From a virus (taxonomy: Duplodnaviria; Caudoviricetes), in IMG/VR virus record IMGVR_UViG_3300027833_001904, positions 1 to 61,550 of that record: 61,550 nucleotides of DNA; one strand, written 5' to 3'. Under the pieces are notes generated by a model that did not search any database, was not told the origin of the DNA, and saw only the letters and a list, made by a program, of their open reading frames with translations. This document shows, piece after piece, positions 20,027 through 58,551 of this stretch (positions are counted from its first letter, which is position 1; each line of letters starts with the position of its first letter). The translations under genes were made by a program, and so were the position numbers.

Positions 20027-20617
20027 ATGGCATTAGTACCAATGGTGGTCGAGCAAACAGGCCGCGGAGAAAGAAGTTACGATATTTACAGTCGTCTATT
20101 AAAAGATCGTATTGTAATGTTAACAGGAGAAGTAAACGACATGACTGCTAATTTAGTAGTTGCACAGATGTTGTTTTTAGAATCACAAAATAGTGCAGAA
20201 GATATTAATTTTTATATTAATAGTCCAGGCGGTGCAGTTACAGCCGGGCTTGGAATTTATGACACAATGCAGTTTATTAAATCTTCAGTAAGCACAATTG
20301 TAATGGGACAAGCATGTAGCATGGGTAGTTTCCTTTCACAAGCAGGCGAACCAGGCAAGCGTTTAGTATTGCCAAACTCACGCACAATGATTCACCAACC
20401 AAGTGGTGGTGCAGGTGGACAAGCAACTGATATGCAAATTCAAGTTGATGAGATTCTCAAGATGAAAAAGAATCTAACACAAATTTATGTTAAACATAAT
20501 AGTGCAGGCAAAACATATGAAGAATTAGAAGCGGCAATGGAACGTGATAATTTTATGAGTGCCGAAGAAGCAGTTGCATATGGACTTGCTGATAAAGTTA
20601 TCGAACGAAAAGTATAA
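20027..20617 (+). CDS. clpP: ATP-dependent Clp protease proteolytic subunit
   Basis: [42 protein letters not shown]. Confidence 0.97.
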
Positions 20618-20652
20618 ACATAGGTTAGTTATATTTTTGTATAAATACTAGT

Positions 20653-21348
20653 ATGAAAATACACGACATATTAGAAAGACTCATAGACGAAGGTCCAAAC
20701 GATCCTGCTATATTTAAAGCTATATTTCTTGCTGGTGGCCCAGGCTCTGGCAAGAGTTACGTAGCAAGTAAAATATTATCAGGACTAGGCCTTAAGCCTG
20801 TTAACAGTGACGATGTGTATGAATACCTAGCTAACAAACATGATGTTGATTTAGGTAATCCAGACGAAGTTGCTAGTGATAAAGGTCAAGAAGCTAGAAA
20901 TCGTGCAAAACAACTTACTGATAAAAGACAAAATATATACATTGATGGTCGCCTCGGATTAATTATTGATGGAACAGGAAAAGACGTTCAAAAAGTAAAA
21001 GAACAAACTGTAAAATTAAAAAGTCTAGGATATGATTGTGCAATGGTATTTGTTAATACTAATCTACAAGTAGCACAAGAACGTAATGGCGATCGTAAAA
21101 GAAAACTTCCGGCAGAAATGGTGCAAACTATGTGGCGTCAAGTTCAAGAAAATATTATGAAGTTTCAGCAAGTATTTGGTGCAAAAGACTTCCACGTAGT
21201 AGACAACAGTGGCGGGCTAGAAGACCCAGAACGTAAAGAAAACTTTGATAATGTATACAAGAGTGTTAGAGCATTTGCTTCATCACCCCCATCTAGTCAC
21301 CATGCTAAAAAGTGGCAAGATGATGCAAAGAATAAAAATACCACTTAA
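20653..21348 (+). CDS. P-loop kinase (zeta toxin/AAA_33-like)
   Basis: GGPGSGKS, VNSDD, IIDGTG, ERNGDR lid motif. Confidence 0.8.
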   Translation: MKIHDILERLIDEGPNDPAIFKAIFLAGGPGSGKSYVASKILSGLGLKPVNSDDVYEYLANKHDVDLGNPDEVASDKGQEARNRAKQLTDKRQNIYIDGRLGLIIDGTGKDVQKVKEQTVKLKSLGYDCAMVFVNTNLQVAQERNGDRKRKLPAEMVQTMWRQVQENIMKFQQVFGAKDFHVVDNSGGLEDPERKENFDNVYKSVRAFASSPPSSHHAKKWQDDAKNKNTT

Positions 21349-21421
21349 ATCCCCCTAAAAAATAGGTAAATATATAACAACGACACTAATAGTGTCGCAT
21401 AGACATGGGTTAATAACAGTA

Positions 21422-21766
21422 ATGTATACATATAAAGCAAAACTAATTAGAGTCGTAGACGGTGATACTATTGATGCAGAGATAGATTTAGGATTTGATA
21501 CAATAGTTCGTAAACGAATTAGATTGTATGGAATTAACACACCGGACACTAAAACAAAAGATCTATCAGAAAAAGATAAAGGATTGGCAGCAAAACAACG
21601 TCTTACTGAATTACTTAGTAATGAATTTGTTGTTGAGACTATTTTAAATAAACGTGGGAAATATGGTAGAGTGTTGGGCGTAGTATATGCTATGGATAAT
21701 AAAACAAAAATAAATATAAATGAAACTTTGGTAGCTGAAGGACATGCTATCAAGTATCTTATATAA
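21422..21766 (+). CDS. Thermonuclease (SNase) family nuclease
   Basis: RVVDGDTI, RIRLYGINTPD, GKYGRVLG. Confidence 0.9.
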   Translation: MYTYKAKLIRVVDGDTIDAEIDLGFDTIVRKRIRLYGINTPDTKTKDLSEKDKGLAAKQRLTELLSNEFVVETILNKRGKYGRVLGVVYAMDNKTKININETLVAEGHAIKYLI

Positions 21767-21777
21767 GGTAAAAATAT

Positions 21778-23361
21778 ATGATAAGAATTTTTGGGTTTTG
21801 GACAATCTTTATAGCATTAGTAATTAGTGCAATAGCAGCCTATTATTCTATTATTGGATTAATTGCAATTTTTGCCGCAGCAGCAGTTCCTGTTATTATA
21901 ATGGGAACAGCATTAGAAATTGGTAAAATCACATCAGCTATTTGGTTACACTTAAAGTGGAAGACTGGTAAATGGCTTATTAAAGGATACTTAGTATTTG
22001 CAGTTGCATTGCTTATGTTCATTACAAGCATGGGTATCTTTGGATTCTTATCAAAAGCACACGTAGAACAAAATGCATCAATGTTAGAAGGCCAAGCACA
22101 GCTAGAACGTATTGAAGTAGAAATTACACGTGCTGAAGGTGAGATTACACGTGCTGAAGGTAAAATTGAAAAACTTTCAACAGCAGACACAAGCACAGAT
22201 GATGGCATACAAGAAAAGATTAGAGTAGCAGAATTAAGTATAACAACTGTATACGATAGATTAAAAGATGATGTTGAGTTTACGCAAGACTCACTAGATC
22301 AAGCAGCGGCACCATACTTAAAACAAGCCGAACAAGCAGATGCTACACTAGAAAAAATGAATACTTATGCAGAAACAAATAACATAACAGCATTACAAGG
22401 TTTAGTAGGTGCTGCACAAGACGGAAGAATGGGATCTAAAACAGCAAAACTTGTTTCAGAATTCCGTGATAAAGTTGAAAAGAATAGAATGATGGCACTA
22501 TTCCAACTACAAAAAATAAGAGAAAATAGCCAAGACGAAACTAAAGATCTTAGAGATGCTGCAGATAGAACAATAGCACAAACTAATAAACTTATTAATA
22601 GATTGCGTGAGCAATTAGGAACAGCAACAGACAATGATGTTGAACCCAAGATACAAGAATTACAAGTTAAAATTAAAGACTTTGAACTAAATTTAGATAC
22701 ACTGTTTGAACAGAAATATGCCATCGAAGCTGAAGGTAGAGAACTAGAAGCAGATGTAGGTCCTGTAAAATATATTGCAGAACTGGTATATGGTGAAGAG
22801 GCAGATAGAGATTCACTTGAAGATGCAGTTAGATGGGTAATACTACTACTTGTTATAGTATTTGATCCACTTGCAATTGTATTGGTTATTTCAGGAATAT
22901 CTCTTGTTGAAGAATACCCTAGAAAAAAGAGGATTCGCAATGAAGATAAAATTACTGAAACAACACCAAAGACTGACCTGGTGGAGAAAACTGTCAAAGA
23001 AACGAAAGCCCGTAAGGAACCTAAAAGCCCAAAAGTAACCCCTAACCAACCAGAACCTAGTTCTGACGCAATAGAATTTAAAGGTGTAGTATACGAACCC
23101 ACAGATTATGCATACCACCGCATTAAAGATCAGATAGATGCCAACGATAAACATCGCAAAATTATCAGTAACCAAACTAAGGTAAATAATATTGTAGAAA
23201 GAATGGAACTTGACGAGAAGACAACAGATGTTGATATTGTTAAGAAACGTTTAGAACAAATGTTTGAAGAAGATAATGCAAAAGCAGAGTTACTAACAAA
23301 TGCCGATACTAAAACAATACATGAAGTATTTAAAGATATTATTAAGGACACTAAGAAATAG
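21778..23361 (+). CDS. Multi-TM membrane protein with long coiled coil
   Basis: Three N-terminal hydrophobic helices, coiled coil, VIVFDPLAIVLV TM segment. Confidence 0.75.
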   Translation: MIRIFGFWTIFIALVISAIAAYYSIIGLIAIFAAAAVPVIIMGTALEIGKITSAIWLHLKWKTGKWLIKGYLVFAVALLMFITSMGIFGFLSKAHVEQNASMLEGQAQLERIEVEITRAEGEITRAEGKIEKLSTADTSTDDGIQEKIRVAELSITTVYDRLKDDVEFTQDSLDQAAAPYLKQAEQADATLEKMNTYAETNNITALQGLVGAAQDGRMGSKTAKLVSEFRDKVEKNRMMALFQLQKIRENSQDETKDLRDAADRTIAQTNKLINRLREQLGTATDNDVEPKIQELQVKIKDFELNLDTLFEQKYAIEAEGRELEADVGPVKYIAELVYGEEADRDSLEDAVRWVILLLVIVFDPLAIVLVISGISLVEEYPRKKRIRNEDKITETTPKTDLVEKTVKETKARKEPKSPKVTPNQPEPSSDAIEFKGVVYEPTDYAYHRIKDQIDANDKHRKIISNQTKVNNIVERMELDEKTTDVDIVKKRLEQMFEEDNAKAELLTNADTKTIHEVFKDIIKDTKK

Positions 23362-23364
23362 TAG

Positions 23365-23817
23365 ATGAACTTAAACGACAATAGCAGTTATACGGTCACT
23401 GCACCAGATTTATTCCTACAATTAAACGGATTAAATGTTTTAATTACAAGCACAAACAAAGAGTTAATTGATAACTTCAAATTAATATTTGAAAAATTTA
23501 TTAGATCAAGCGTAGTTTTTAATGTGCAACAACGAGTAACAAAACCAGATAGTTTGCCGTGGATGTGGCACGTTAGCAGAACATGTGAATATATGTTAGT
23601 TGACTTAGATACATGTGCATGGGAAGATATAATGGCTGCGTTATTAAAGCGAATGGATGATAATCATTCTGTAATTTTTTATAGTGAAAAGAAAGTAAGA
23701 CGAGAAGCAATAAAATTGATTAACGCAACCAGCAACTATATTATAATTAACAACTTAGAAGAATTAAATAAATTCTTAGACATAGATACTCAATACCCAG
23801 GCATGCCAGATGAGTAA
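23365..23817 (+). CDS. Hypothetical protein
   Basis: 150 aa coupled ORF upstream of clpX. Confidence 0.7.
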   Translation: MNLNDNSSYTVTAPDLFLQLNGLNVLITSTNKELIDNFKLIFEKFIRSSVVFNVQQRVTKPDSLPWMWHVSRTCEYMLVDLDTCAWEDIMAALLKRMDDNHSVIFYSEKKVRREAIKLINATSNYIIINNLEELNKFLDIDTQYPGMPDE

Positions 23818-25009
23818 TCCATACTGTAATTTTTGCGGTAAAAATAAACATCAAACCAAAAAACTATTAGCTGGAAATGATGGAACACACATTTGTGATG
23901 GATGTGTGGATCTTTGTCATGACATATTAATTAAAGAAAAAGCTAAAGCATCAGCTCAACCAGAGTCTGTAACACGCCTTAAGCTACCTACACCGTTAGA
24001 ATTACACGAACACTTAAATAGATTCGTCATTGGGCAAAACACCGCTAAAAAGACGCTTAGTGTTGCAGTATACAACCATTACAAGCGGATTAAGAACACT
24101 ACACAAGTAAAGTTACAAAAGAATAATGTGCTTATAGCAGGTCCTACTGGAACAGGCAAAACACTTATTGCTTCTACATTGGCATCATATTTAGATGTGC
24201 CATTTGTAGTTACAGATGCAACAACAATAACTGAAAGCGGATATGCAGGTGATGACACAGAAGTATTACTAGACAAACTATTCCAAGCTGCTGATTATGA
24301 TGTAGAAAAAGCACAGTTGGGTATTATATACGTAGACGAGATTGATAAAAAAGCAAAACGAAATGACATGGTAAGTTTAAGTCGTGATGTGTCAGGCGAA
24401 GGTGTGCAACAAAGTTTGCTAAAGCTAATGGAAGGCACAGTAGTAACAGTTCCAAACAAACCTCAAGCCAATCCAGAAAAAGTAGATATAGATACTACTA
24501 ACATATTGTTTATAGTAGGCGGAGCATTTATAGGATTATCAGATCTTGTAAAACAACGTATAGGCCAAAGTAAAATAGGCTTTAATGATAACAAACAGGA
24601 ACAATTAGATAATTGGGAAATGCATTTACAAACACGTGATCTAGTTCAGTATGGACTTATTCCAGAATTTGTAGGAAGATTACCTAGTGTTAATGTTTTA
24701 CACGAATTAACCAAAGAAGAACTAGTGAAAATACTTACAGAACCACAAGATTCAATAATAGATCAAATAAAAGTGCTTTTTTCACTTGACAAAATACAAA
24801 TAGAGTTTAATATAAAAGCATTAGAGCAAATTGCCTCTATTGCAATAGAACAAGACCTCGGTGCAAGAGGATTAAGAAAGATACTGGATTCGGCACTTGT
24901 GGAAACACAATACCAGTTACCACAACTAAGAGAAAGCGGAGTGAAAAAAATTATTATAACAGATGAAACTATTGTCAATGGCCATCCACCGTTAATGATA
25001 AAAGGGTAA
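23810..25009 (+). CDS. clpX: Clp protease ATP-binding subunit ClpX
   Basis: CNFCGK...ICDGC zinc domain, GPTGTGKT, GYAG pore loop, RDVSGEGVQQ, IGF loop, GARGL. Confidence 0.96.
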   Translation: MSNPYCNFCGKNKHQTKKLLAGNDGTHICDGCVDLCHDILIKEKAKASAQPESVTRLKLPTPLELHEHLNRFVIGQNTAKKTLSVAVYNHYKRIKNTTQVKLQKNNVLIAGPTGTGKTLIASTLASYLDVPFVVTDATTITESGYAGDDTEVLLDKLFQAADYDVEKAQLGIIYVDEIDKKAKRNDMVSLSRDVSGEGVQQSLLKLMEGTVVTVPNKPQANPEKVDIDTTNILFIVGGAFIGLSDLVKQRIGQSKIGFNDNKQEQLDNWEMHLQTRDLVQYGLIPEFVGRLPSVNVLHELTKEELVKILTEPQDSIIDQIKVLFSLDKIQIEFNIKALEQIASIAIEQDLGARGLRKILDSALVETQYQLPQLRESGVKKIIITDETIVNGHPPLMIKG

Positions 25010-25010: not shown

Positions 25011-25532
25011 ATGAAACAGAAAAATAATCATAACAACCCAAGAAGCCACATCACTGCAAATGAGAAGATCAGAGCAAAAGATGTTAGAGTAATAGCTAGG
25101 GATAGCGAATCCGTAGTAATGCCATTAAGTAAAGCATTACAACAAGCAAGGAGCCAGTATTTAGATTTAATACTTATTAATCCTAAAGCTGAACCACCGT
25201 TATGTAGAATAATGGAAATAAATAAGTTTTTGTATGAACAAAAACAAAAAGAGAAAGCAGAGAAAAAACGCCAACGTGAAAACATAGTAGATCAAAAAGA
25301 AATACGAATGGGCTTAAACATTGATCAAAATGATATGCAAACTAAGGCAAATCATGCTAAGAAGTTTTTAGAACAAAAAGCAAAAGTCACGGTGACAATT
25401 GTTTTAAAAGGCCGCGAAAGAGGCAAACAAGACATGGCAAGAGATCTATTGAATAGCTTCGCTGAATTATGCGAAGTTGAGTATGAAACGATAAATAGTC
25501 AAAACAATAGAGTAATTGGACGTGTGAAATAG
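25011..25532 (+). CDS. infC: Translation initiation factor IF-3
   Basis: NEKIRAKDVRVI, LDLILINPKAEPPLCRI, KEIRM, KGRE. Confidence 0.92.
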   Translation: MKQKNNHNNPRSHITANEKIRAKDVRVIARDSESVVMPLSKALQQARSQYLDLILINPKAEPPLCRIMEINKFLYEQKQKEKAEKKRQRENIVDQKEIRMGLNIDQNDMQTKANHAKKFLEQKAKVTVTIVLKGRERGKQDMARDLLNSFAELCEVEYETINSQNNRVIGRVK

Positions 25533-25539
25533 GTAACAA

Positions 25540-25815
25540 ATGAAAAAATATAATAATAATTCTCGAGATAGAAACAGAGATAACAGAGAAGATAAAGATT
25601 ACGGATTGTCCGTTGAAGTGAGAAACAACAACGTAGACCAAGCAATGCGTAAGTTAAAAAAGAAAATAATGAATGATGGCATGTTGCAAGAATTACGCGA
25701 ACGCCAACATTTTGTAAGTAATACAGAAAAACGATTAAAGGCCGAGGCTGCGGCTCGTGCCAGACATCGTAAACGTATAGCTAGCGATAAAATAGATAAA
25801 CCAAGGCTATACTAA
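25540..25815 (+). CDS. rpsU: Ribosomal protein bS21
   Basis: VEVRNNNVDQAMRKLKKK...ELRERQHF. Confidence 0.9.
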   Translation: MKKYNNNSRDRNRDNREDKDYGLSVEVRNNNVDQAMRKLKKKIMNDGMLQELRERQHFVSNTEKRLKAEAAARARHRKRIASDKIDKPRLY

Positions 25816-25817: not shown

Positions 25818-25903
25818 GAATTTGTATACATGTAGTATACGAATAGGCGAGGCGCCGTAAGGGCCTCATTATATACATCTTGCTTAAAAGGAGATAAAAG
25901 ATG
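25818..25903 (+). promoter_or_regulatory. ROSE-like RNA thermometer in hsp20 5' UTR
   Basis: Two upstream hairpins, then ATCTTGCT pairing with AGGAGAT (SD) with a bulged G. Confidence 0.65.
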
Positions 25904-26326
25904 AAAACATTAACAACACTTGATCTGCAGAAGATCGCACCATATGCCGTTGGATTTGACAGAATAATTTCTGACATGTTTCAATATGCAGACAATAACG
26001 TAGCAAGCACAGGCTACCCACCATATAACATTCGCAAAGAAGGTGACAAGTTTCAAATTGAAATTGCACTAGCTGGTGTTACTAAAGAAGATTTAGAAAT
26101 CAATTTAGAAGAAGGGCAGCTAACAATCTCACATGACCCAGAGGAAACTCAAGTCGATGTAGAGTATTTGCACAAAGGTATTGCACAACGCAAGTTCAAA
26201 CGAGTTTGGACGCTGAGTGATGATGTAGTCGTAAACGGTGCTCAAATGGAAAACGGAATGCTTTATGTAGAATTAGAGCGTATTGTTCCAGAAGAGAAAA
26301 AAGCACGTTCGATTAAAATTAAATAA
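25901..26326 (+). CDS. Small heat-shock protein Hsp20 (IbpA-like)
   Basis: GFD, YPPYNI, IEIALAG, YLHKGIAQRKF, ENGML, PEEKK. Confidence 0.95.
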   Translation: MKTLTTLDLQKIAPYAVGFDRIISDMFQYADNNVASTGYPPYNIRKEGDKFQIEIALAGVTKEDLEINLEEGQLTISHDPEETQVDVEYLHKGIAQRKFKRVWTLSDDVVVNGAQMENGMLYVELERIVPEEKKARSIKIK

Positions 26327-26391: not shown

Positions 26392-26697
26392 ATGTCACAA
26401 GAAGAAATAGCAACAGCAGAAAAGAAAAAAACAGCATTAAAGTCACCTAATAAATATCATGTGGTATTTTTAAATGATAATGTAACTCCAATGGAATACG
26501 TTATACAGGTGCTAGTGGCATTCTTTGGTAAAGGCCCTGATGAAGCAAATATAATTACATTAGAGATCCACGAAAAAGGAAGATCTATCGCAGGTTCATA
26601 TAGCTATGAAGTAGCTGAACAAAAATGCATAGAAACAGTCACAGATGCAAGAAAACATAGCTACCCGCTTGATGTAGTTATGGAAGAAACTACTTAA
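26392..26697 (+). CDS. clpS: ClpA adaptor ClpS
   Basis: YHVVFLNDNVTPMEYVI...IHEKG...YEVAE...YPL. Confidence 0.93.
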   Translation: MSQEEIATAEKKKTALKSPNKYHVVFLNDNVTPMEYVIQVLVAFFGKGPDEANIITLEIHEKGRSIAGSYSYEVAEQKCIETVTDARKHSYPLDVVMEETT

Positions 26698-28456: not shown

Positions 28457-28695
28457 TGTTACATACAGTAGAATCATTATTAGAAAAAATTAATGCAATG
28501 CACTCAAAAGCATTATTACTACACAGACTTCGTAATCAATATTCAGAAGCATCAGGAAAAACATACGACCATGCGGAGTGTCAAGCCCTTATCGATGATA
28601 TTCAATACATGGCTAAACTTATTTCAAACGATAAGCAAGGCGATGAGATTAAAACCGAAATGGAATACACGAAATTTTTAAAGGATGAAAAATGA
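28456..28695 (+). CDS. Hypothetical protein
   Basis: Coupled ORF with GGAGG RBS. Confidence 0.7.
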
Positions 28696-29813
28696 GAATA
28701 GACCAGGATATTAAACTAGACTACAGTGATGTGTTAATTCGCCCAAAACGTAGCACACTTAAAAGTCGTAGTCAAGTAAGACTTGAACGCAAGTTTAAAT
28801 TTAGAAATAGCAGGCACGAATACGAAGGTATTCCTATTATGGCTGCTAACATGGACGGTGTTGGAACATTTGCACTAGCAGATACACTAGCCCAACAAAG
28901 TATGTTTACATGTTTAGTAAAAACATATTCAGTAGAAAAACTTGTAGAATACTTTGATAAAGGTCTTCAAATCAGAACAGAACATGTTGCTATGAGTATT
29001 GGCACAAGTTGGGAAGACTTTGACAAATTAACAAAAGTTTGTAAATTGAGTAGTGGATTAAAGTATGTATGCATGGATATTGCAAATGGTTATAGTGATC
29101 ACTTTGCACAGCATGTAAGGAAAGTGCGTGATGCATTTCCTAATTTAATAATTATAGCAGGTAATGTAGTTACCGGAGAAATGACAGAGGAGTTAATACT
29201 TGCAGGAGCAGATATCATTAAAGTTGGAATCGGACCAGGAAGCGTCTGCACAACAAGAATTCAAACAGGAGTCGGGTATCCGCAACTTAGTGCAGTCATT
29301 GAGTGTGCAGATGCGGCACATGGGCTTGGCGGACATATTATCGCTGATGGGGGCTGTAACTCTAGTGGTGATGTGGCTAAAGCATTTGCTGGCGGCGCCG
29401 ATTTTGTAATGCTAGGCGGTATGCTTGCAGGACACAATGAAGGTGGTGGCGATGTTATTACAAAATATTATGAAACAACTGAACTTGTATACGAAATAGG
29501 TTCGCACTTAGATAAGCATACACGTAAGATTGAAACAAAACAATTTGTAGCGTTCTACGGTATGAGTTCAGATGCAGCAAATACAAAACACTTTGGTGGA
29601 CTAAAAGACTATCGTGCAAGCGAAGGTCGAGAAGTATTAGTTCCATACCGAGGAGATGTTAAAGACACAATTCAAAGTATATTGGGTGGTATTAGATCAA
29701 CTTGCACATATTCAGGTGCAATGAAACTCAAACAACTTAGTAAATGCACTACGTTCGTTCGTGTTAACAATCAGTTTAACAGAACATACGAAAGCACAAC
29801 AACCAAAATATAA
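28692..29813 (+). CDS. guaC: GMP reductase
   Basis: [51 protein letters not shown]. Confidence 0.95.
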
Positions 29814-29825
29814 CTTTTAAACAGG

Positions 29826-29842
29826 TATGTGTATAGTGCATA
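29826..29842. promoter_or_regulatory. Possible LysR-type T-N11-A box
   Basis: TATGT-N7-GCATA imperfect dyad followed by a second ATGCAT. Confidence 0.4.
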
Positions 29843-29899
29843 ACGAGAATGCATAAATAAGTATGGTTTATTGCGTAAATACGTGATAAATAAAAGTGT

Positions 29900-30110
29900 A
29901 ATAATAACACAAAGGTGTGTTGTTTACATATACAACGTAGTATAGAGCGACCTCGGCTCAGAAAAAAAGAGCGGCAGTTAGTGCCACGCTAACTGACTAT
30001 GGGAAAGACCATGGCATAACCCATGCCTTACAAGCGACACGGATGCAGGTGTTGTGGTAGCGGCCAGGAGAGACTGGCAAATAACGGATGCTTTCCCAAA
30101 AACATCCACA
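29900..30110 (+). ncRNA. Candidate multi-hairpin structured RNA or leader
   Basis: At least six consecutive hairpins with complementary segments (GGGAAAG/CTTTCCC). Confidence 0.55.
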
Positions 30111-30133
30111 TATAACTTTTAAGGAGAAGCCAA

Positions 30134-30319
30134 ATGGCAACCAATTTCTTTGGTGCTTGGGCAGGACTCTTCAATGGCGCACGTAAGACACGTGTAAAAT
30201 ATGAGGCTGAACTGCTAAAGTACGCGAAAACAGAATACACAAATGACTGGCAGTATGCATATCAGCATATGTTAGATAACAACGGACACGGTCCACGAGA
30301 AGTGAGTGTATACCGATGA
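30134..30319 (+). CDS. Small protein
   Basis: AAGGAG RBS; ELLKYAKTEYTNDWQYAY. Confidence 0.75.
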   Translation: MATNFFGAWAGLFNGARKTRVKYEAELLKYAKTEYTNDWQYAYQHMLDNNGHGPREVSVYR

Positions 30320-30492
30320 TTAAACATATTATAAAACGTTATAATAAAATGATGCTAAACCGCGAAGAGTCTTATCTAGCAAACTCATGCGATTTAGTTG
30401 AACTAGAAAGACGTCAACGAGAGATTCAACGTGGGAATGCACCATGGCAAAAACCACTATTAACAACCCCAAATTTAAGAGGACATGTATAA
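30316..30492 (+). CDS. DUF3563-like small protein (not in ORF track)
   Basis: ATGA overlap; EESYLANSCDLVELERRQREI. Confidence 0.7.
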   Translation: MIKHIIKRYNKMMLNREESYLANSCDLVELERRQREIQRGNAPWQKPLLTTPNLRGHV

Positions 30493-30683
30493 TGACAACA
30501 ACAGTATTATATAACACTACATGTAGAGTATGTGAAACAATTAAACTAGGCTTAATAACAGCCGCTATGGCAATATGGGCATTTGGTGAAAGTGCCGGTA
30601 GAGCAAGAGCAGCAACTGAACTAGCACGCCAAGGCTACCATAAGGAAGCACGTAATTTGATGATTGGAAACAACGATGTTTAA
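30492..30683 (+). CDS. Small protein
   Basis: TAATG overlap; FGESAGRARAATELARQGY. Confidence 0.7.
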   Translation: MTTTVLYNTTCRVCETIKLGLITAAMAIWAFGESAGRARAATELARQGYHKEARNLMIGNNDV

Positions 30684-30810
30684 AAAGTTTTTAAAAGCAA
30701 TGGAATACAGAAGTTATTGCATGAGCATACAGCAACTTAGAGATATGGGCGAGTTTGAAAAAGCTAACGAGATATCTGAGTTTAAACATAACATGTATCC
30801 TACCCACTAA
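30676..30810 (+). CDS. Small protein (44 aa, not in ORF track)
   Basis: MFKKFLKAMEYRSYCMSIQQLRDMG..., overlapping the previous stop. Confidence 0.6.
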   Translation: MFKKFLKAMEYRSYCMSIQQLRDMGEFEKANEISEFKHNMYPTH

Positions 30811-30821
30811 GGAATGATGAA

Positions 30822-30995
30822 ATGAAATTAATTAGAACACTAAAAAACTTGATGGCACCCAGCTATGATAGAAAAGGCGCTCGTGCTTTACATAGCATGA
30901 CCGACAGAGAGCTTCAAGACATAGGAATATGTCGTGGAGATATTAACAGAATGTGTAGGACACAAGCTGAATTTAATAGAAAACAGCAGATGTAA
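30822..30995 (+). CDS. DUF1127 (YjiS-like) small protein (not in ORF track)
   Basis: ALHSMTDRELQDIGICRGDI signature. Confidence 0.85.
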   Translation: MKLIRTLKNLMAPSYDRKGARALHSMTDRELQDIGICRGDINRMCRTQAEFNRKQQM

Positions 30996-31017
30996 CCATA
31001 TAGTTTATCTTTACATT

Positions 31018-31054
31018 AAAAGTCGTATACTGTTCCCTCGGTATGCGGCTTTTT
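31018..31054 (+). terminator. Intrinsic terminator with GTTCCCTC loop
   Basis: AGTCGTATACT-GTTCCCTC-GGTATGCGGCT followed by TTTT. Confidence 0.8.
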
Positions 31055-31088
31055 CTTTATATACAGTTTTAATCGGCTAAATAGTAGT

Positions 31089-35816: not shown

Positions 35817-36227
35817 ATGGCATATTCAGACAAAGTAATGGATCATTATGAGAACCCACGTAATGTAGGTAAGTTTGATCCCAAAGAAAGTAATATTGGA
35901 ACAGGAATGGTTGGAGCTCCTGCTTGCGGTGATGTAATGAGATTACAAATTCAAGTAGAAGATGGTATTATTACTGATGCTAAATTTAAAACATATGGTT
36001 GTGGTAGTGCAATTGCAAGTAGCAGTTTACTAACTACAATGGTAAAAGGTATGAATTTAGAAGAAGCTGGTGCAATCCAAAACATGGACCTTGCAGATGA
36101 ACTTGCATTACCTCCAGTTAAGATTCACTGTAGTGTATTAGCCGAAGATGCAATTAAATCTGCAATAGCAGATTATCAAGGCAAAAACCCAGTGCCAGAA
36201 GGCGCCAATTATTTTGAAATTAAATAA
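35817..36227 (+). CDS. iscU: Fe-S cluster scaffold protein
   Basis: MAYSDKVMDHYENPRNVG, APACGD, GCGSA, LPPVKIHC. Confidence 0.97.
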   Translation: MAYSDKVMDHYENPRNVGKFDPKESNIGTGMVGAPACGDVMRLQIQVEDGIITDAKFKTYGCGSAIASSSLLTTMVKGMNLEEAGAIQNMDLADELALPPVKIHCSVLAEDAIKSAIADYQGKNPVPEGANYFEIK

Positions 36228-36230
36228 AGG

Positions 36231-36261
36231 TTGACATTTTATACACTTTCGTGTATAAATA
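36231..36261 (+). promoter_or_regulatory. Overlapping sigma70 and late promoter for tmRNA
   Basis: TTGACA-17nt-TATAAA, where the -10 is also a perfect TATAAATA. Confidence 0.75.
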
Positions 36262-36266
36262 ACATT

Positions 36267-36560
36267 GTAACGTTGAAGCGATTTGACGACTATACTGGAC
36301 CTCGGGGCAGTACCGAGCAGCTCCACCAAAAACATACTAGTGTCCAGTTAAGTTTGGAACACATCTGATAAAGTGGCTAGTATGTTTTTGATGGGGCTGA
36401 ACTAGGATCGACAGGTAGGATAGATGAGTGGAGTTACCGGGATGTAAGCGCCGTTACCGCGAACAAACTTTATAATTGCAAATAACAATTATGCGCCAGA
36501 AATGGCATTAGCAGCCTAGAGTTGCTATGAGGTAACTATACCTTATTACCCAAACTAGTA
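36267..36560 (+). ncRNA. ssrA: Circularly permuted (two-piece) tmRNA, tag ANNNYAPEMALAA
   Basis: Acceptor piece with T-arm and CAGCTCCACCA (ends 36328) precedes GGGGCTGAA 5' end (36393); tag frame 36478-36519; outer ends approximate. Confidence 0.92.
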
Positions 36561-36561
36561 G

Positions 36562-36588
36562 AAAGGGTGTCTTAGGGCACCCTTTTTT
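36562..36588 (+). terminator. Intrinsic terminator after tmRNA
   Basis: AAAGGGTGTC-TTAG-GGCACCCTTTTTT. Confidence 0.88.
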
Positions 36589-36606
36589 GAGGCAATAAAT
36601 ACTAGC

Positions 36607-37650
36607 ATGATATATTCCAAGAAGCCATTAATATTACAATTAGAATTAAGCAGTATGTGTAATGCATTATGCTTAGGCTGTCAGCGTGTCGATCCAAATA
36701 CATTTAACAGTGTGCATCCAGATATCCCTAAAAAGGAAATGATATCAGTTGATACAATACACAAATTAATGAATAGCCCAGCAATGGCTAGTATAGAGGA
36801 AATACAATTTTGTGGAACAATAGACGAGCCACTAATGCATCCAAATTTTATGGAAATACTAGATGTTATGTATGAAGCGAATCCAGAACTAGACATAGAA
36901 ATACATACAAATGCAAGTTTAAGGACAACTGAATTTTGGAGAGACCTAGCACATAAGTTATCCAAGTTTAAGAAACATAAAGTATTATTTGGCATAGATG
37001 GGTTAGTTGACACACATGAAATATATAGACAGCAAACAAATTTTGATCTCATTATTAGAAATGCAGTGCATTTTATACGTGCAGGCGGGAATGCACAATG
37101 GCAGTATATTATCTTTCCATGGAATAAACATCAAGTAGAAGAAGCACGTAACATGAGTAATAGTTTAGGATTTAAGGAATTTAAAACTCGTAATGATAGA
37201 AGTGGAGTAAGCGAAGAAGGACTTGACTTAGTAAGAGAAATACAACAAAATCCAACAACTAGTAAAGAAGGAACAGATGTGAGTATATACAATGGGTATG
37301 CGATTAGTTGTATGAATCACGATGAAGACATGTATCATGTTTCATACGATGGCAGACTTTGGCCTTGTTGCTATTTTGGTAATGTAAAGTATATGGGTCC
37401 AAAATTGTATAACGAATTTAAGCAGAGAATATTTGGAGTGTATGGCGAAGATTTTAATTTACTTACCAAACACACAGTAGAAGAAATATTAGATTCAGAT
37501 TTATATAAAAACGATTTAGTAGAGTCTTGGAATAATCCAATAGGTTGCGGCAGTAAAGATAAAGTAAATCGTTGTGCAATGTCGTGTAGTGTAAAAGCAC
37601 TTGAAACCAGACCAATTGCAACAGCACATAAAATTACAGAAAACTTTTAA
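36607..37650 (+). CDS. Radical SAM protein with SPASM/twitch domain (paralogue 4)
   Basis: CNALCLGC, HTNAS, FGIDG, YDGRLWPCC, RCAMSC. Confidence 0.9.
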   Translation: MIYSKKPLILQLELSSMCNALCLGCQRVDPNTFNSVHPDIPKKEMISVDTIHKLMNSPAMASIEEIQFCGTIDEPLMHPNFMEILDVMYEANPELDIEIHTNASLRTTEFWRDLAHKLSKFKKHKVLFGIDGLVDTHEIYRQQTNFDLIIRNAVHFIRAGGNAQWQYIIFPWNKHQVEEARNMSNSLGFKEFKTRNDRSGVSEEGLDLVREIQQNPTTSKEGTDVSIYNGYAISCMNHDEDMYHVSYDGRLWPCCYFGNVKYMGPKLYNEFKQRIFGVYGEDFNLLTKHTVEEILDSDLYKNDLVESWNNPIGCGSKDKVNRCAMSCSVKALETRPIATAHKITENF

Positions 37651-46758: not shown

Positions 46759-47065
46759 TTGCACAAGTATACCAAGTATAATAGACATTAATTCTTCTCC
46801 TGTAGAAAGACCTCCACTAGTGGTCCCAAACGTAGATGAATTTACTACAAGACCTATTGAATGGACAGTTTTAACACCTGAGAATCAAGAACAAGTATTC
46901 CAGGATTTAAAAGACAGAGACATTGATGTGGTACTTTATGCAATCACTGACGATGGGTATAAAAACCTTTCGCTAAATATGGCAGATATTATTAAGTTGG
47001 TAAAACAACAAAAAGCAATAATAGCCGCCTACGAAAAGTACACCGATGAAGAAAAAACAGAATAA
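46712..47065 (+). CDS. Putative outer-membrane spanin lipoprotein (Rz1-like)
   Basis: Lipobox LSSC; Pro-rich linker; AAGGAG RBS. Confidence 0.7.
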   Translation: MQNLLIASLAILTLSSCTSIPSIIDINSSPVERPPLVVPNVDEFTTRPIEWTVLTPENQEQVFQDLKDRDIDVVLYAITDDGYKNLSLNMADIIKLVKQQKAIIAAYEKYTDEEKTE

Positions 47066-47729
47066 CCCTTGGGATGTTTTAGGCATCCACCCAGATTCAA
47101 ATGTTGCTGAAGTAAAGAAAGCCTACAAAAGTCTTTCTATGTTACATCATCCAGATAAAGGCGGCAAGATTGCAGACTGGCTAGCAATAGCAGATGCATA
47201 CGATTCCATTACATCAAAGAATTACATTCCCATAGTCAAATCTACCAACACACAATTGCTTAATCTTAAACTTAGTTTAAAGCAGCAAATACTAGGTGTT
47301 GATGATATCATTGCAATAGAAAATGATGATGACGAAATATACATGAACGTTAAGATACCACCTGGAGCTGCATCGGGTGATAAGATACAAGTTACGCAAG
47401 ATAATAAAAAATATATAATAAATATTAAAGATAAAGCACATTCGGTCTTTACAAGACAAGGTTCTTCGCTTATAATGTATAAGAAGGTATCAGTTATAGA
47501 AGCACTAAAGAGAACACCAATACTGATAGAAGGTCCAACAGAAGAATTTATCGAAGTAGACTTGCCAGAAGAAATACAAACAGGAACTATACTAACATTG
47601 GCAAATTATGGTTTATACGATAAGAAGAAACGAAAACGAGGGAATTTAAAAATACATATACATGTAGACTTCCCTATTATTACAGACGCTAATTTACAAG
47701 AATTTATAACAAGGTTAAAAAATGACTGA
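47046..47729 (+). CDS. DnaJ/CbpA-like co-chaperone
   Basis: J-domain with HPDKGG; C-terminal DnaJ_C-like region. Confidence 0.88.
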   Translation: MKKKQNNPWDVLGIHPDSNVAEVKKAYKSLSMLHHPDKGGKIADWLAIADAYDSITSKNYIPIVKSTNTQLLNLKLSLKQQILGVDDIIAIENDDDEIYMNVKIPPGAASGDKIQVTQDNKKYIINIKDKAHSVFTRQGSSLIMYKKVSVIEALKRTPILIEGPTEEFIEVDLPEEIQTGTILTLANYGLYDKKKRKRGNLKIHIHVDFPIITDANLQEFITRLKND

Positions 47730-50031
47730 TATTGAAAAAATTATTATTACAGCAATAGATCTAGCAAAAAGATTTAAACACGAGTATGTTACAATTGAAC
47801 ACCTAACAGCCGTTATATTAGACGACGAAGAAGTTCGTAGCATGTGTTTTGATATACAAGCAGACTTCGAAGGTATACAAGTAGCACTTATACATTACCT
47901 TCAACATGACTGTGATGAAATTGCAGTGGCAAACGGAGAAGAACCAGATCCTAAAAAGACACAAATGCTTGAAAGAGTATTTAATAGAGCATTAACACAA
48001 GCATTGTTTCAAGGTAAAAAAGCTATTGATCAGTTAGATCTGGTATTAAGTATATTGGGTGAGGATAAAAGCACAAGTTGTTTCTTTGCAGAGAGTTTAG
48101 GATTATCAAAGTCAAAAGTATTAGCATGGATGCAGGAAAGTTTTGCAGAGAACTTTAAAACAGATTACGAACAACAGCAAGCACACGAAGAAGCATACTA
48201 TACGCAGACTAAAAAGAATCAAATGGGTCCACAAACACATGTAGAGGTGTTGCAACAGTTTTGCACTAACCTATGTGAACAACATGCAGATTTTGAAGAT
48301 GTAATTGGTCGCAGAGAAGAATTAAAAGACCTTGTGCAAACAATTGCACGTAAGAAAAAATCAAACGCTATTTTAGTAGGAGCCAGTGGTGTTGGTAAAA
48401 CTGCTATTGTGCAAGGGTTATCAAAACTTATTGTAGAAGGACATGTTCCTGATATTATCAAAGGCACCACAGTGTGGGAACTTGATATGACGAAGTTAAT
48501 TGCAGGCACAAAGTATAGAGGCGACTTTGAAGAACGCATGAAACTGCTAGGCGATGCATTAATGAAATTAGACGATATTATATTATTCATTGATGAGATA
48601 CACACAGTAATTGGTGCAGGTAGCACTAGTGGTAGCTTAGACGCAGGTAACATGCTCAAACCAGCATTAAGTTCAGGCAAGCTGAAAGTTATTGGTGCAA
48701 CAACAGATGAAGAATATCGTAAGATATTTGAAAAAGAAAGTGCGTTAGCACGTAGATTTACAAAGTTAAATGTAAAAGAACCAACAGTGCAAGAAGCTAA
48801 AGAAGTCTTACGTAATACACTAGACCATTACGAAGCATTTCATGAAGTAGATATTGATATTGCATCGGCAGATTTAGCAGTAGAATTATCAGCACAGTAT
48901 ATCTTTAACAAGAAACTTCCAGACAAAGCATTTGATATTATTGATAGAGCATGTGCATTTAATAGAATATTACCAGAAGAAGAACGTGTAACCACTATTG
49001 GCATAAATGAAATTAGAGCTGAGGTTTCTAGACTAACTGGCATACCAAAAGAACACTTAGGCACAGCTGCAGAAGAACAATCAATTAAAAAACATACAGA
49101 AGTAAAAGCATTTTTAGAGAACACAGTATTTGGACAACAAGAAGCCATTGATAAAGTATCAAATGCAATTACAGTAAGTTTAGCAGGCCTAAAAGATCCA
49201 AACAAACCAGTTGCAAGTTACTTGCTTACAGGACCAACAGGTGTAGGTAAAACAGAACTTGCTAGACGTCTATCACAAGCAATGGGCATGTCAATGGTGC
49301 GTTATGATATGGCTGAATATCAAGAACGTCATAGTGTAGCAAAACTAATAGGCTCACCTCCAGGCTATGTAGGACATGGTGATGGTAAAGCAGGTGATGG
49401 TTTGCTAATTACACAATTAGAAGATAATCCAAATTGTGTATTGTTACTAGACGAAGTAGAAAAAGGACACCCAGATATTATGAGTGTTATGCTAAGTTTA
49501 CTAGATGAAGGTATAATTACAAGTAGCTCAGGCAAAAAAGTCAGTGCAAAAAATGCCATCATTATAATGACCAGTAACTTAGGTGCAAAGGATGCCTCTA
49601 TTAAGAGCATCGGATTTAACGAAGAAACATACAACGATAGTGCGGTAACAGAAGCAATTAATAACTTCTTTGCACCAGAGTTTAGAAATAGACTTGATGG
49701 TGTTATAAGATTTAATTCACTACAACCTGAAAATATGCAACGTATTGTTATAAAGTTTTTAAGACAATTAGAAGGATATGTTGAGGGCAGACACATTAAA
49801 ATTCATTGGAATAAAAATCTTTTAGCTATGTTACAAGATAAAGGATACAGTGCTACAATGGGTGCTCGTCCACTTGCACGTCTCATTAACGAACGTGTTA
49901 AACTACCACTAGCAAATTATATGATGGAAAATTTAGAATCAAAAGAGCTTGATATATCGTATGATGAGGTTACAGATAAAGTTAACATTCTGCCATCTAA
50001 AGTGATAGCAGCCAATGAACAACCAGCATAA
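47722..50031 (+). CDS. clpA: Clp protease ATP-binding subunit ClpA
   Basis: HEYVTIEHL N-domain; two AAA modules (GVGKT twice); GTKYRGDFEER; PPGYVG; IGF loop; no ClpB M-domain. Confidence 0.93.
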   Translation: MTDIEKIIITAIDLAKRFKHEYVTIEHLTAVILDDEEVRSMCFDIQADFEGIQVALIHYLQHDCDEIAVANGEEPDPKKTQMLERVFNRALTQALFQGKKAIDQLDLVLSILGEDKSTSCFFAESLGLSKSKVLAWMQESFAENFKTDYEQQQAHEEAYYTQTKKNQMGPQTHVEVLQQFCTNLCEQHADFEDVIGRREELKDLVQTIARKKKSNAILVGASGVGKTAIVQGLSKLIVEGHVPDIIKGTTVWELDMTKLIAGTKYRGDFEERMKLLGDALMKLDDIILFIDEIHTVIGAGSTSGSLDAGNMLKPALSSGKLKVIGATTDEEYRKIFEKESALARRFTKLNVKEPTVQEAKEVLRNTLDHYEAFHEVDIDIASADLAVELSAQYIFNKKLPDKAFDIIDRACAFNRILPEEERVTTIGINEIRAEVSRLTGIPKEHLGTAAEEQSIKKHTEVKAFLENTVFGQQEAIDKVSNAITVSLAGLKDPNKPVASYLLTGPTGVGKTELARRLSQAMGMSMVRYDMAEYQERHSVAKLIGSPPGYVGHGDGKAGDGLLITQLEDNPNCVLLLDEVEKGHPDIMSVMLSLLDEGIITSSSGKKVSAKNAIIIMTSNLGAKDASIKSIGFNEETYNDSAVTEAINNFFAPEFRNRLDGVIRFNSLQPENMQRIVIKFLRQLEGYVEGRHIKIHWNKNLLAMLQDKGYSATMGARPLARLINERVKLPLANYMMENLESKELDISYDEVTDKVNILPSKVIAANEQPA

Positions 50032-56404: not shown

Positions 56405-56406
56405 AA

Positions 56407-56604
56407 ATGATTAAGAATTTAAAAGATTTAATAATTGTAGCATTAGTAATTGGTGTATTATCATTACTAGGATTAATAATTGTAGGTGACTACTATGTTG
56501 CATTACAAGAAAATAGACCAGTAGACGAAAGCGTTATTACACTAATGAAAATGGCACTTACAGGATTAATAGGCATTATTGCAGGCTACATAGGAAGTAA
56601 ATAA
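56407..56604 (+). CDS. Small two-TM membrane protein
   Basis: Two hydrophobic helices; likely start ATG 56407. Confidence 0.7.
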   Translation: MIKNLKDLIIVALVIGVLSLLGLIIVGDYYVALQENRPVDESVITLMKMALTGLIGIIAGYIGSK

Positions 56605-56605
56605 T

Positions 56606-57148
56606 ATGTTCCAACATCACATTATATTAGCAACACCAGAAGTAATGGAATCAGAACTTGTTCACAAGTGGTATGATTTTGTAAAAACTTATGGTCCAGA
56701 AGGAATTGTATCTCCGTATACAACTGTTGATGGCGATGTTGCAATAGAATATGGAACACGTGAAAGCGACATGCCACACTGTTATATTATTCCTCTACAT
56801 AGAGATTTAACTACAGACGAAACACAATTTATTGTAGCAACATGGGAACATATATACCCAGAAGATTTTGATATTGAAATTTCAAATCAATATGATATTT
56901 CACGTAGTTATGAATATGACATCAATGAAGAATTTGAAACTCGTGCAAGACACGATATGAAAAAATGGCATCATAATCGTTGGGTTACAGAAATGTCACA
57001 TACTGGCTGGAGTTGGGGAACTTCATTTAGTGAATCAAAGAAAACACACCCAGCATTGCGTGATTGGGATAGCCTTCCAGAATCACATAGACGCAGTCCA
57101 GATTTCAATCAAAAAGAAATTACTGAATGGCTACGCAACCTAATTTAG
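56606..57148 (+). CDS. RyR-domain protein
   Basis: HNRW...GWSWG...KKTHPALRDWDSLPE. Confidence 0.8.
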   Translation: MFQHHIILATPEVMESELVHKWYDFVKTYGPEGIVSPYTTVDGDVAIEYGTRESDMPHCYIIPLHRDLTTDETQFIVATWEHIYPEDFDIEISNQYDISRSYEYDINEEFETRARHDMKKWHHNRWVTEMSHTGWSWGTSFSESKKTHPALRDWDSLPESHRRSPDFNQKEITEWLRNLI

Positions 57149-57207
57149 GTTGACATCACACACTTACCGTTATATAATAAACACTATTAACCTATAGGAG
57201 ACTCTGA

Positions 57208-58551
57208 ATGAGCAAAGCATTGATACTTCTTTCTAGCAATAAGAACGAAGTTAAAAAGTTAGGTCTGGCAAAACATGCCGCACTAATTGACAAAGACGTA
57301 GATGTTGCATTTGCAAACAAAGACTACGACTACATTACACTAATTAATAAAGCACCAACAACACCACAAGAAGCACGTGACATTGGTGGGAATATGTTTA
57401 AGAAATATAAATCAAAAGCAACAGAAATTGTTTTTAATCTTCCTAGACTAGCTGATGTTAAAGAAGGTGCAGCATTGGCATCATACGAATTTACCAAATA
57501 TAAAACAAAGCCTGAAGAAAACACACTACAAGTAGAAGATGCAGGCATTAGTGCAAGTGTTCATTTTGCACGTGATTTAGTTACAGAGCCAGGCAATGCA
57601 TTATATCCTGAAGAATACGCACACCGTATTAATGAAACACTCACACCACATGGTGTTAGAGTGCGTGTAATTTATCAACGTGAACTAGAACGCATCGGCA
57701 TGGATATGCTGTTAAGTGTTGGACTAGGTAGTGAGAATAACAGTGCTGTGGTTATAATGGAATGGATGCATGGACTTGAAGGTGAACAACCAATTGCATT
57801 AGTAGGTAAAGGTGTTACATTTGACACAGGTGGTATTAGTTTAAAACCAGGTCGTAACATGGGCGATATGAAATATGACATGGGCGGTAGTGCCGCAGTT
57901 GTAGGAGCCATGCATGCTATTGCTGATAAAAAACTAAAGAAAAACGTAGTTGGTATTGTAGGACTAGTAGAGAACATGCCAGATGGTAAAGCAATTAAAC
58001 CAGGTGATGTTGTTAGATCACTAAGTGGACAATATGTTGAAAACTTAAACACTGATGCAGAAGGCAGACTTGTGCTTGGTGATATTTTAACATATGTGCA
58101 AAGTGAATACAATCCAGGTGCTATTATTGACCTTGCTACACTAACAGGAGCCATTGTTGCAACACTAGGCAATGAAATGGCAGGATTGTTTACTAACAGT
58201 GATGGATTAGAAAAAGCAATTATTGAAAATGGTGAGCTAGGTGGAGAAGGTTACTTCCGTATGCCAATGGGTAAAAACTGGGCTAAGATGATCGAATCAC
58301 CTATCGCTGATTTCCAAAACATTGGTGGTCCATATGGTGGCTCAACTACTGCCGCTGAATTCTTATACAAGTTTGTAGACAAGAAAACAGCATGGGCTCA
58401 TTTAGATATTGCAGGTATGTGTTGGTCTAAAAGTGGAAATGCAACAACACCAAAAGGCGCAGTCGGCTTCGGCGTAAAAACATTATTCAACTTTGTAGAC
58501 AACACAGAGAGTTATCAGTGGTTTGCAGTAGAAGAAAAAATGTCATACTAA
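57208..58551 (+). CDS. pepA: Leucyl aminopeptidase (M17)
   Basis: VGKGVTFDTGG, MKYDMGG, NTDAEGRL, DLATLTG, HLDIAG; promoter 57150-57178. Confidence 0.95.
   Translation: MSKALILLSSNKNEVKKLGLAKHAALIDKDVDVAFANKDYDYITLINKAPTTPQEARDIGGNMFKKYKSKATEIVFNLPRLADVKEGAALASYEFTKYKTKPEENTLQVEDAGISASVHFARDLVTEPGNALYPEEYAHRINETLTPHGVRVRVIYQRELERIGMDMLLSVGLGSENNSAVVIMEWMHGLEGEQPIALVGKGVTFDTGGISLKPGRNMGDMKYDMGGSAAVVGAMHAIADKKLKKNVVGIVGLVENMPDGKAIKPGDVVRSLSGQYVENLNTDAEGRLVLGDILTYVQSEYNPGAIIDLATLTGAIVATLGNEMAGLFTNSDGLEKAIIENGELGGEGYFRMPMGKNWAKMIESPIADFQNIGGPYGGSTTAAEFLYKFVDKKTAWAHLDIAGMCWSKSGNATTPKGAVGFGVKTLFNFVDNTESYQWFAVEEKMSY

Follow-up and report, generated by a model that had tools for sequence, protein, structure and literature searches.

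Does a phage that carries both Clp proteases and a tmRNA destroy the proteins that its own tmRNA has tagged? The question is raised by the virus record IMGVR_UViG_3300027833_001904 of IMG/VR, analysed here over its whole length of 61,550 bases (the window), which represents roughly one sixth of the genome (~360 kb) of a marine jumbo phage that has a T4-like capsid and belongs to a common uncultured clade. A first-pass annotation had listed genes for ClpP, ClpX, Hsp20, ClpS, a DnaJ-like protein, ClpA and PepA, together with a tmRNA, and had described them as a single proteostasis kit matched to that tmRNA. The seven genes and their start positions hold up, as full-length family matches for which chance is no issue. 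The kit divides into three loci, and the phage ClpX probably does not read the phage tag. The new point, as read from alignment, is a clade-wide rebuilding of the ClpX substrate gate.

Substrate-entry loops of the phage ClpX

The gene at 23810..25009 (+ strand) encodes a ClpX unfoldase with remodelled substrate-entry loops. The product scores above the cut-offs of the NCBIfam equivalog NF003745 (504.1 against 359) and TIGR00382 (471 against 370.75), and aligns to the solved ClpX 8e91_A (402.7 bits, E 1.4e-119), the numbering of which is that of E. coli ClpX. The C4 zinc finger is present (Pfam zf-C4_ClpX, 56.6 bits), with its four Cys conserved in the clade, and the Walker motifs are kept. The IGF docking loop (SKIGFNDN, aligned to E. 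coli SGIGFGAT) is retained across the clade.

We found 66 viral loci with ClpX, and define the clade of the window as the 51 in which ClpX has at least 55% identity; gene counts given below are among loci with enough flanking sequence. The ClpX alignment comprises 72 distinct sequences: 32 from the clade, 9 from distant viral contigs, 29 from Alphaproteobacteria, omitting one unpublished genome, and those of two cultured jumbo phages, Atu_ph07 and Phosso. Three changes occur in 32 of the 32 clade sequences: the pore loop GYVG reads GYAG (as the first-pass annotation had noted for the window), SITRDV reads SLSRDV (T199S), and the RKH loop PQGGRKHPQQE is replaced by NK---PQxNPEK. The window version of this last loop is NK-PQANPEK, three residues shorter and without R-K-H; one clade ClpX has a different loop at the position, likewise without R-K-H. 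None of the 40 comparison sequences shows any of the three changes, and all 40 keep the canonical loops. The earlier statement that the RKH loop region reads KRN was misplaced, as KRN sits in KKAKRNDMV, which aligns to another segment (E. coli ISRKSDNPS). In a quick maximum-likelihood tree the 32 clade sequences form one branch (SH-aLRT 100) with a long stem of 0.9, and bacterial ClpX forms another (99).

These are the loops by which the ssrA tag is read. Residues Y153, V154, T199, V202, R228 and H230 touch the ssrA tail and are critical to binding and specificity, the change R228A lowers ssrA specificity and raises N-degron specificity, and human ClpX, without T199 and H230, does not degrade ssrA substrates (Fei et al., 2020). 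The phage ClpX is altered at four of the six positions (V154A, T199S, R228 lost and H230 lost), and keeps Y153 and V202. Thus, it does not have the canonical ssrA-reading loops (GYVG, T199, R228/H230), although its identity as a ClpX is unaffected. Because four of the six ssrA-critical positions differ, the enzyme is more likely a re-specified unfoldase than a reader of its own tag. The remodelled loops favour an altered specificity, at which the first-pass annotation had hinted; their conservation in the clade, with a ClpX dN/dS near 0.1, suggests a defined specificity rather than relaxed function. We found no published account of such remodelling in a phage ClpX, in a partial coverage of the literature. 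Clade-wide natural changes at the ssrA-reader residues, under purifying selection, amount to a natural experiment on ClpX specificity.

Three loci and their gene products

The Clp genes and the tmRNA belong to three separately and vertically inherited loci, a ClpP-to-ClpS module, a J-protein-ClpA pair and the tmRNA, rather than to a single kit. Across the 51 clade loci the module has a fixed order: ClpP, kinase, nuclease, orf527, orf150, ClpX, IF-3, bS21, Hsp20 and ClpS. ClpP was found in 39/39 loci, IF-3 in 47/50, bS21 in 48/50, Hsp20 in 40/50 and ClpS in 48/48. The J-protein gene is directly upstream of ClpA in all 25 related loci, and this block is bounded by PhoH in 21 of them. A 335-kb relative (G006:C57) has the tmRNA, bS21, Hsp20, ClpS, J-protein and ClpA, and neither ClpX nor ClpP was found on this contig by tblastn or Pfam. 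PepA, an M17 leucyl aminopeptidase (57208..58551, +; Pfam Peptidase_M17 375.3 bits; NCBIfam NF002077 484.7 against 471), is a variable accessory gene. It lies near ClpX in 3 of 51 loci and near ClpA in none of 25, and was not found by tblastn in G001, G005 or G006:C57; we therefore regard it as an occasional passenger.

All ten genes from ClpP to orf109 have dN/dS values of 0.09-0.30 in comparison with three relatives (ClpP 0.10-0.17, ClpX 0.10-0.15), and this stretch is under purifying selection. Two metatranscriptome runs of one study include contigs that agree exactly with the window in portions of ClpX, IF-3, bS21 and Hsp20 and elsewhere, and RNA-library contigs of another study include a 90-base exact match to the first piece of the tmRNA. 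Summed contig depth in one metatranscriptome run is by far the highest at 29996-31329 (505 and 178 in two bins). The stretch 29813-31089 is largely without called open reading frames (ORFs) of at least 80 amino acids, and the depth contigs there are 90-95% alike and may be from relatives.

ClpP (20027..20617, +) is recognised by Pfam CLP_protease (264.8 bits) and NCBIfam PRK00277 (307.4, cut-off 249), and scores 292.2 with TIGR00493, under its cut-off of 308.6. The protein matches a solved cellular ClpP over its full length (265.6 bits), and the triad of Ser (GQACSMGS), His (MIHQP) and Asp (ERDNF) aligns to that of solved ClpP. Its N-terminus, MALVPMV, corresponds to the mature form of the bacterial protein. 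Next in the module are a P-loop kinase-like protein of the Zeta-toxin/AAA_33 type (20653..21348, +; Pfam Zeta_toxin 52 bits; phrog_12810; phrog_505, polynucleotide kinase), present in 33 of 40 clade loci, and a small endonuclease (21392..21766, +; phrog_452 endonuclease, 127.9 bits). The conserved protein orf527 (21778..23361, +) occurs in 42 of 42 clade loci and has weak Pfam matches alone and no PHROG. On inspection of its sequence we identified hydrophobic stretches close to the N-terminus and around residue 350, and a long, charged and repetitive middle.

The neighbour of clpX, orf150 (23365..23817, +), encodes a flavodoxin-like (receiver-like) protein, and the stop end of this gene shares 8 bases with the start of clpX. 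It is present in 48 of 48 loci of the remodelled-ClpX clade and in none of the 15 loci with a canonical-loop ClpX. No PHROG or Pfam match and no usable ESM Atlas match was found. An alignment of 21 sequences has 13 invariant residues, and the N-terminal peptide DNSSYTVTxPDL is invariant and predicted to be disordered. The AlphaFold2 model has a (beta-alpha)5 fold (pLDDT 82), for which receiver domains lead the fold matches (Z up to 11.4; Foldseek, VIA-align), with deoxyribosyltransferase and TIR folds tied. An acidic pair after strand 1, looked for as a sign of a phospho-acceptor pocket, was seen neither in the alignment nor in the model. The receiver-domain proteins CpdR and RssB are known ClpX adaptors. 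By this analogy orf150 may be a ClpX adaptor, which we offer as a lead and not as a finding.

Downstream of ClpX are IF-3 (25011..25532, +; Pfam IF3_N 84.4 bits, IF3_C 69.9 bits) and ribosomal protein bS21 (25540..25815, +; Pfam Ribosomal_S21 50.1 bits), and the placement of this pair (25011-25815) between ClpX and Hsp20 is conserved in the clade. Because the clpX-IF3 pair is common to the window, Atu_ph07 and Phosso, an old link of translation-initiation take-over with ClpX is suggested. The Hsp20 gene (25901..26326, +; Pfam HSP20 62.7 bits) encodes an IbpA-like small heat-shock protein, for which IbpA is the best NCBIfam model, with a score under its cut-off. ClpS, the N-degron adaptor for ClpA (26392..26697, +; Pfam 91.6 against 23), has the solved ClpS 3dnj as its best structural match. 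Each of the 38 unique clade sequences has the N, D, T and H of the LNDxxTP...H motif. We take these residues and the gatekeeper position to have the pocket roles generally given to them. The gatekeeper is Met in the window, Gln in 13 of the 38 unique clade sequences and Val in one.

The tmRNA (36227..36610, +) is a two-piece (permuted) alpha-type molecule with the tag ANNNYAPEMALAA. It was called by ARAGORN (as tmRNA*), and matches two Rfam models over their full length (tmRNA_permuted RF04321, 110.8 against 47; alpha_tmRNA RF01849, 96.5 against 50). The acceptor stem GGGGCUG/CAGCUCC has a G3-U pair and is followed by an encoded ACCA. The LAA end that the first-pass annotation had noted is correct: the window tag ends in ALAA, and those of relatives (ANDNYSPEMALAA, ANNNYEPEMAMAA, ANDNYAPEMAMAA and ANDNYAPEMALAA) keep an A[LM]AA end. 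Sampled alphaproteobacterial tags end in VAVAA, MALAA, RLAA and similar. Because the ending is generic for Alphaproteobacteria, the phage tag is not specifically matched to the phage ClpX. A tmRNA was identified in three of five partial relatives, as well as in G006:C57, G008:C8 and Phosso. Those of loci L069, L113 and L094 were detected with Rfam and not with ARAGORN, and a pattern search recovered the tags of L113 and L094 and not that of L069.

The tmRNA adjoins a tRNA array and genes for IscS and IscU. The latter, an IscS-type cysteine desulfurase (Aminotran_5, 277 bits) and IscU (NifU_N, 172 bits), occupy 34573-36227 directly upstream. The window also has at least five ORFs of the radical-SAM type, including a B12-binding one (5891-7798, 14234-15238, 17907-18905, 33035-33694 on the - strand, and 36607-37650). 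These matches suggest that the phage supplies Fe-S assembly of its own to serve its radical-SAM enzymes.

SmpB (PF01668) was not found in the window, as the first-pass annotation had stated, nor in any of five relatives, Atu_ph07 or Phosso; the metagenome-assembled genome (MAG) that holds the 335-kb contig has one SmpB only, on another contig. That annotation had also proposed a search for SspB; none was found either in the window or in any of the five related records, among them this MAG. Four related virus records gave no Hsp70 (the window itself was not in that search), and the sole Hsp70 match of the same MAG is on another contig. Because the records are incomplete, these proteins are reported as not found rather than as absent. 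A more distant record, G007 (553,716 bases, rated complete; locus L065/L093), has a ClpX of 44% identity, an SmpB (184.5 bits) and no alpha-type tmRNA match.

The first gene of the remaining pair (47046..47729, +) encodes a J-domain protein (Pfam DnaJ 35.5 bits, DnaJ_C 70.2 bits) with the HPD motif in HHPDKGG. At 227 residues, with no zinc-finger domain listed and all NCBIfam DnaJ scores under their cut-offs, the product reads as a J-protein other than a type I DnaJ. The second gene (47722..50031, +) encodes a ClpA-type double-ring AAA+ unfoldase, for which E. coli ClpA is the best solved match (540 bits, residues 9-735). Residues 11-721 of E. coli ClpA align in one stretch, and ClpB matches are split in two (there is no ClpB middle domain). 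Both sets of Walker A/B motifs, the KYR and GYVG pore loops and the [IV]GF tripeptide are conserved in 20 of 20 unique clade sequences. The docking tripeptide is IGF in the window and IGL in E. coli, so both ATPases have the IGF loops first attributed to them.

A proposed mechanism and its alternatives

We give slightly better than even confidence to the reading, taken as a whole, that the three blocks serve translation take-over and protein quality control, and that the phage ClpX is not a tag reader and has its own substrate set. The phage ClpP would be the shared peptidase of ClpX and ClpA, since both ATPases keep IGF docking loops. ClpS would deliver N-degron substrates to ClpA, the J-protein would recruit the host DnaK, and Hsp20 would hold unfolded protein. 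The tmRNA, charged by the host alanyl-tRNA synthetase (AlaRS), would free stalled ribosomes together with the host SmpB, and the tagged proteins would go to the host ClpXP or to the phage ClpAP. The phage ClpXP would act on a different set of substrates. This offers a testable reason for a phage to keep its own ClpXP, and corrects the idea of a phage tag and a phage ClpX tuned to each other.

Several points weigh against this reading. Some ssrA binding may persist, because T199S still has a hydroxyl and Y153 and V202 are unchanged; the ssrA rules of E. coli may not necessarily be transferable to the phage enzyme. In E. coli, ClpS inhibits ClpAP on ssrA substrates, which weakens the ClpAP route for tagged proteins. 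ClpA is the best-scoring family for the double-ring ATPase, yet its scores are under the cut-offs (TIGR02639, 754.8 against 993.15; NF008263, 603.1 against 1350), and the NCBIfam scores of ClpS are under the equivalog cut-offs. The window and the clade records are fragments, 17-56% complete, and SmpB, SspB and DnaK could lie elsewhere. The ClpX tree comes from a quick search. The RNA-library matches are assembled contigs, for which DNA carry-over is possible and uncovered parts are uninformative, and thus indicate candidate expression only. All roles of the phage proteins are inferred from their sequences.

The first-pass annotation had instead proposed that the phage tmRNA tags proteins, that the phage ClpXP and ClpAPS read the LAA end and degrade them, and that PepA recycles the peptides. 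All parts of this chain occur within one window, the tag and those of the clade have a suitable end (ALAA; A[LM]AA), ClpA keeps canonical pore loops, and ClpX keeps Y153, V202 and a hydroxyl at 199. We nevertheless consider it unlikely. In 32 of 32 clade sequences ClpX has V154A and is without R228 and H230, residues that are ssrA-critical (Fei et al., 2020). The tag ending is one that Alphaproteobacteria use generally, PepA accompanies ClpX in 3 of 51 loci and ClpA in 0 of 25, the 335-kb relative has the tmRNA, ClpS and ClpA with no ClpX or ClpP found, and the parts are in three separate blocks. What stands of the proposal is a set of intact components (ClpP, the ATPases, ClpS, Hsp20, the J-protein and the tmRNA), and a phage-run Clp system is likely, whereas the tag-matched chain is unlikely. 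Retargeting of proteolysis to host or defence proteins, which the same annotation had raised, is possible.

A second alternative is that these proteins act in morphogenesis, with ClpP as the head maturation protease or its helper, and ClpX and ClpA as assembly chaperones or translocases for virion proteins. Translocase or assembly roles have been proposed for the ClpA and ClpX of jumbo phages (Iyer et al., 2021), ClpP and ClpX of Bacillus phage G were seen in virion mass spectrometry, and ClpA of the window adjoins spanin-like ORFs, with a tail-fibre-like ORF nearby. The window ClpP, on the other hand, is matched by cellular ClpP over its full length, and scores only 111 bits with the head-maturation model, compared to 307 bits with PRK00277. 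Each of G001-G003 has a second, weaker ClpP-family match, which agrees with a distinct prohead protease. ClpS serves as an adaptor for degradation, and the module is accompanied by IF-3 and bS21 rather than by structural genes. We judge a role in morphogenesis quite improbable.

A narrower proposal extends the reading that we prefer. The phage would have a private ClpXP, the gate of which was rebuilt once, that ignores ssrA-tagged and other AA-ending host substrates and is steered by orf150 to host regulatory or defence proteins, while the tmRNA frees ribosomes and loads the host ClpXP with tagged waste. The gene orf150 is receiver-like, shows translational coupling to clpX and is seen nowhere without the remodelled ClpX. 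As a complete scenario this, too, is quite improbable.

Nutrient scavenging appears to us very unlikely. Here, unselective bulk proteolysis by ClpAPS, ClpXP and, where present, PepA would provide amino acids for a large virion in the host of a nutrient-poor ocean. At least 10 studies have marine metagenome runs in which module DNA occurs, and some relatives have PepA. Without the closed-gate loops that recognise ssrA, ClpX could become less selective, and an open-channel ClpX mutant is described, in the part of the literature covered, as degrading casein better. PepA is, however, rare, and the remodelled loops are strongly conserved in the clade at a ClpX dN/dS near 0.1.

A cellular origin of the region, as a bacterial contig or island with a host's own Clp system, is extremely unlikely: all genes have close cellular counterparts and two relatives are in bacterial MAG bins, but no alphaproteobacterial ClpX exceeds 56% identity in 101 genomes, tRNA arrays are present in the window and SmpB was not found there, the window encodes PhoH, an endolysin and a tail-fibre-like ORF, related contigs have Gp23 capsid genes, cultured jumbo phages also have the clpX-IF3 pair, and phage ORFs of the window recur on the MAG contigs.

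The genome size follows from the CheckV estimate that the window is 17% complete, which implies roughly 360 kb. The window has a G+C content of 35%, nearly all genes on one strand, and ten tRNA genes and one tmRNA gene (ARAGORN). The endolysin is a GH108 lysozyme (41645-42157, -), and the tail-fibre-like ORF has 880 residues. Just upstream of the J-protein, overlapping ORFs at 46291-46758 and 46679-47065 resemble an i-spanin/o-spanin pair, the first with an N-terminal hydrophobic segment and the second with a lipobox-like LSSC. Related records with the same ClpP-ClpX-ClpS module reach 184-205 kb (51-56% complete). A T4-type Gp23 major capsid gene was identified in one of them, G003 (278.8 bits), and in the 335-kb relative; in MAG G006 the match occurs twice, on contigs C57 and C77. 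G006:C57 (locus L087, 335,231 bases) and G008:C8 (L089) are phage relatives filed in bacterial MAG bins; both have ORFs and the tmRNA tag type in common with the window, and are probably mis-binned phage contigs. The module DNA is nearly unchanged across the marine runs mentioned above, and ClpX relatives at 66-98% identity fall in at least 120 protein clusters.

The phage shares ancestry with phages of Alphaproteobacteria, and a host from an alphaproteobacterial lineage is indicated by its two-piece alpha-type tmRNA and its relationship to the jumbo phages of rhizobia. The 10-kb module had no megablast match among GenBank phages. Among the 101 alphaproteobacterial genomes (97 with a ClpX match; the tally takes in the unpublished genome G048), the closest bacterial ClpX has 56% identity. 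A BLAST search of the tmRNA against 401 alphaproteobacterial genomes matched 24, with all bacterial matches at most 113 bases long; the sole longer match was to G008, on the phage-like contig. The phage-type tag was tried as a pointer to the host, and its degenerate pattern matched four contigs, two of them phage-like in MAG bins and two with 64% GC. ARAGORN called no tmRNA on the latter two, which are probably chance matches. The nearest bacterial tag ending, ANDNEMALAA, occurs on at least 120 contigs of many alphaproteobacterial lineages, and was of no use for this purpose. The window (37949-38038) and the relative G005 (28473-28560) both have a tRNA-Ser with the anticodon ACT, which is unusual for bacteria (ARAGORN). 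Enzyme genes follow one another at 3837-12016, where a methyltransferase, an NAD-binding oxidoreductase, a B12 radical-SAM methyltransferase-like ORF and two AMP-binding/acyl-CoA-ligase-like ORFs suggest a pathway for a small molecule or for a modification.

Comparison with known Clp systems

The gene set is already of a known kind, because the papers on Atu_ph07, AP-J-162 and phage G show it. Atu_ph07 has ClpX, and ClpA beside DnaJ, as well as ClpB, ClpP and ClpS (Attai et al., 2018). Six Clp proteins, Hsp20, DnaJ, GroES, a tmRNA and a clpX adjoining IF-3 are reported in the AP-J-162 paper, and ClpP, ClpS, ClpA and ClpX have been noted in jumbo phages (Iyer et al., 2021). Among GenBank phage records we found ClpX-like genes in 201 and ClpA-like genes in 194, all with less than 60% identity to those of the window. 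The jumbo-phage papers list Clp genes and tmRNAs but treat them as generic 'protein turnover' genes.

The closest likeness is to phages of the Polybotosvirus type (Agrobacterium phage Atu_ph07 and Sinorhizobium phages AP-J-162 and Phosso, about 470-490 kb), which, like the window, have ClpX, ClpA by DnaJ, ClpP and ClpS. AP-J-162 also has Hsp20 and a tmRNA. In the GenBank records of Atu_ph07 and Phosso clpX is directly upstream of IF-3, as in the window, and the two share with it the lack of a detected SmpB. Phosso has an alpha-type tmRNA with the tag ANDNVSTKVALAA, whereas Atu_ph07 has no tmRNA. The ClpX proteins of Atu_ph07 and Phosso are only 45-46% identical to that of the window and, unlike it, keep GYVG and GGRKN. 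The Clp genes of these phages are scattered rather than grouped as ClpP...ClpX...ClpS, and the phages are from soil, with a GC content of 37-47%, in contrast to the marine window.

Bacillus phage G (499 kb) has adjacent ClpP and ClpX genes and a tmRNA, and its ClpX is 47% identical to that of the window. It differs in its Gram-positive host and in its tag, AKLNITNNELQVA, which is without an AA end, and no ClpA or ClpS is reported in the parts of its paper covered. The huge phages of Al-Shayeb et al. (2020) have translation factors and ribosomal protein S21 besides a tmRNA and SmpB. No SmpB was found for the window clade, and the word 'Clp' does not occur in the main text of that paper.

With E. 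coli ClpXP the window shares the zinc finger, the Walker motifs, the pore-1 Tyr, the IGF loop, the ClpP triad and the ALAA tag end. It departs from the E. coli ssrA/SspB system in that ClpX has V154A and T199S and has lost R228 and H230 with a three-residue deletion, and in that SspB and SmpB were not found. Human mitochondrial ClpX keeps GYVG and is not close to the phage protein, with partial matches of 298-299 bits compared to 402.7 for 8e91_A. It resembles the phage ClpX in having no equivalents of T199 and H230, and leaves ssrA substrates undegraded (Fei et al., 2020), which shows that a working ClpXP is possible without tag reading.

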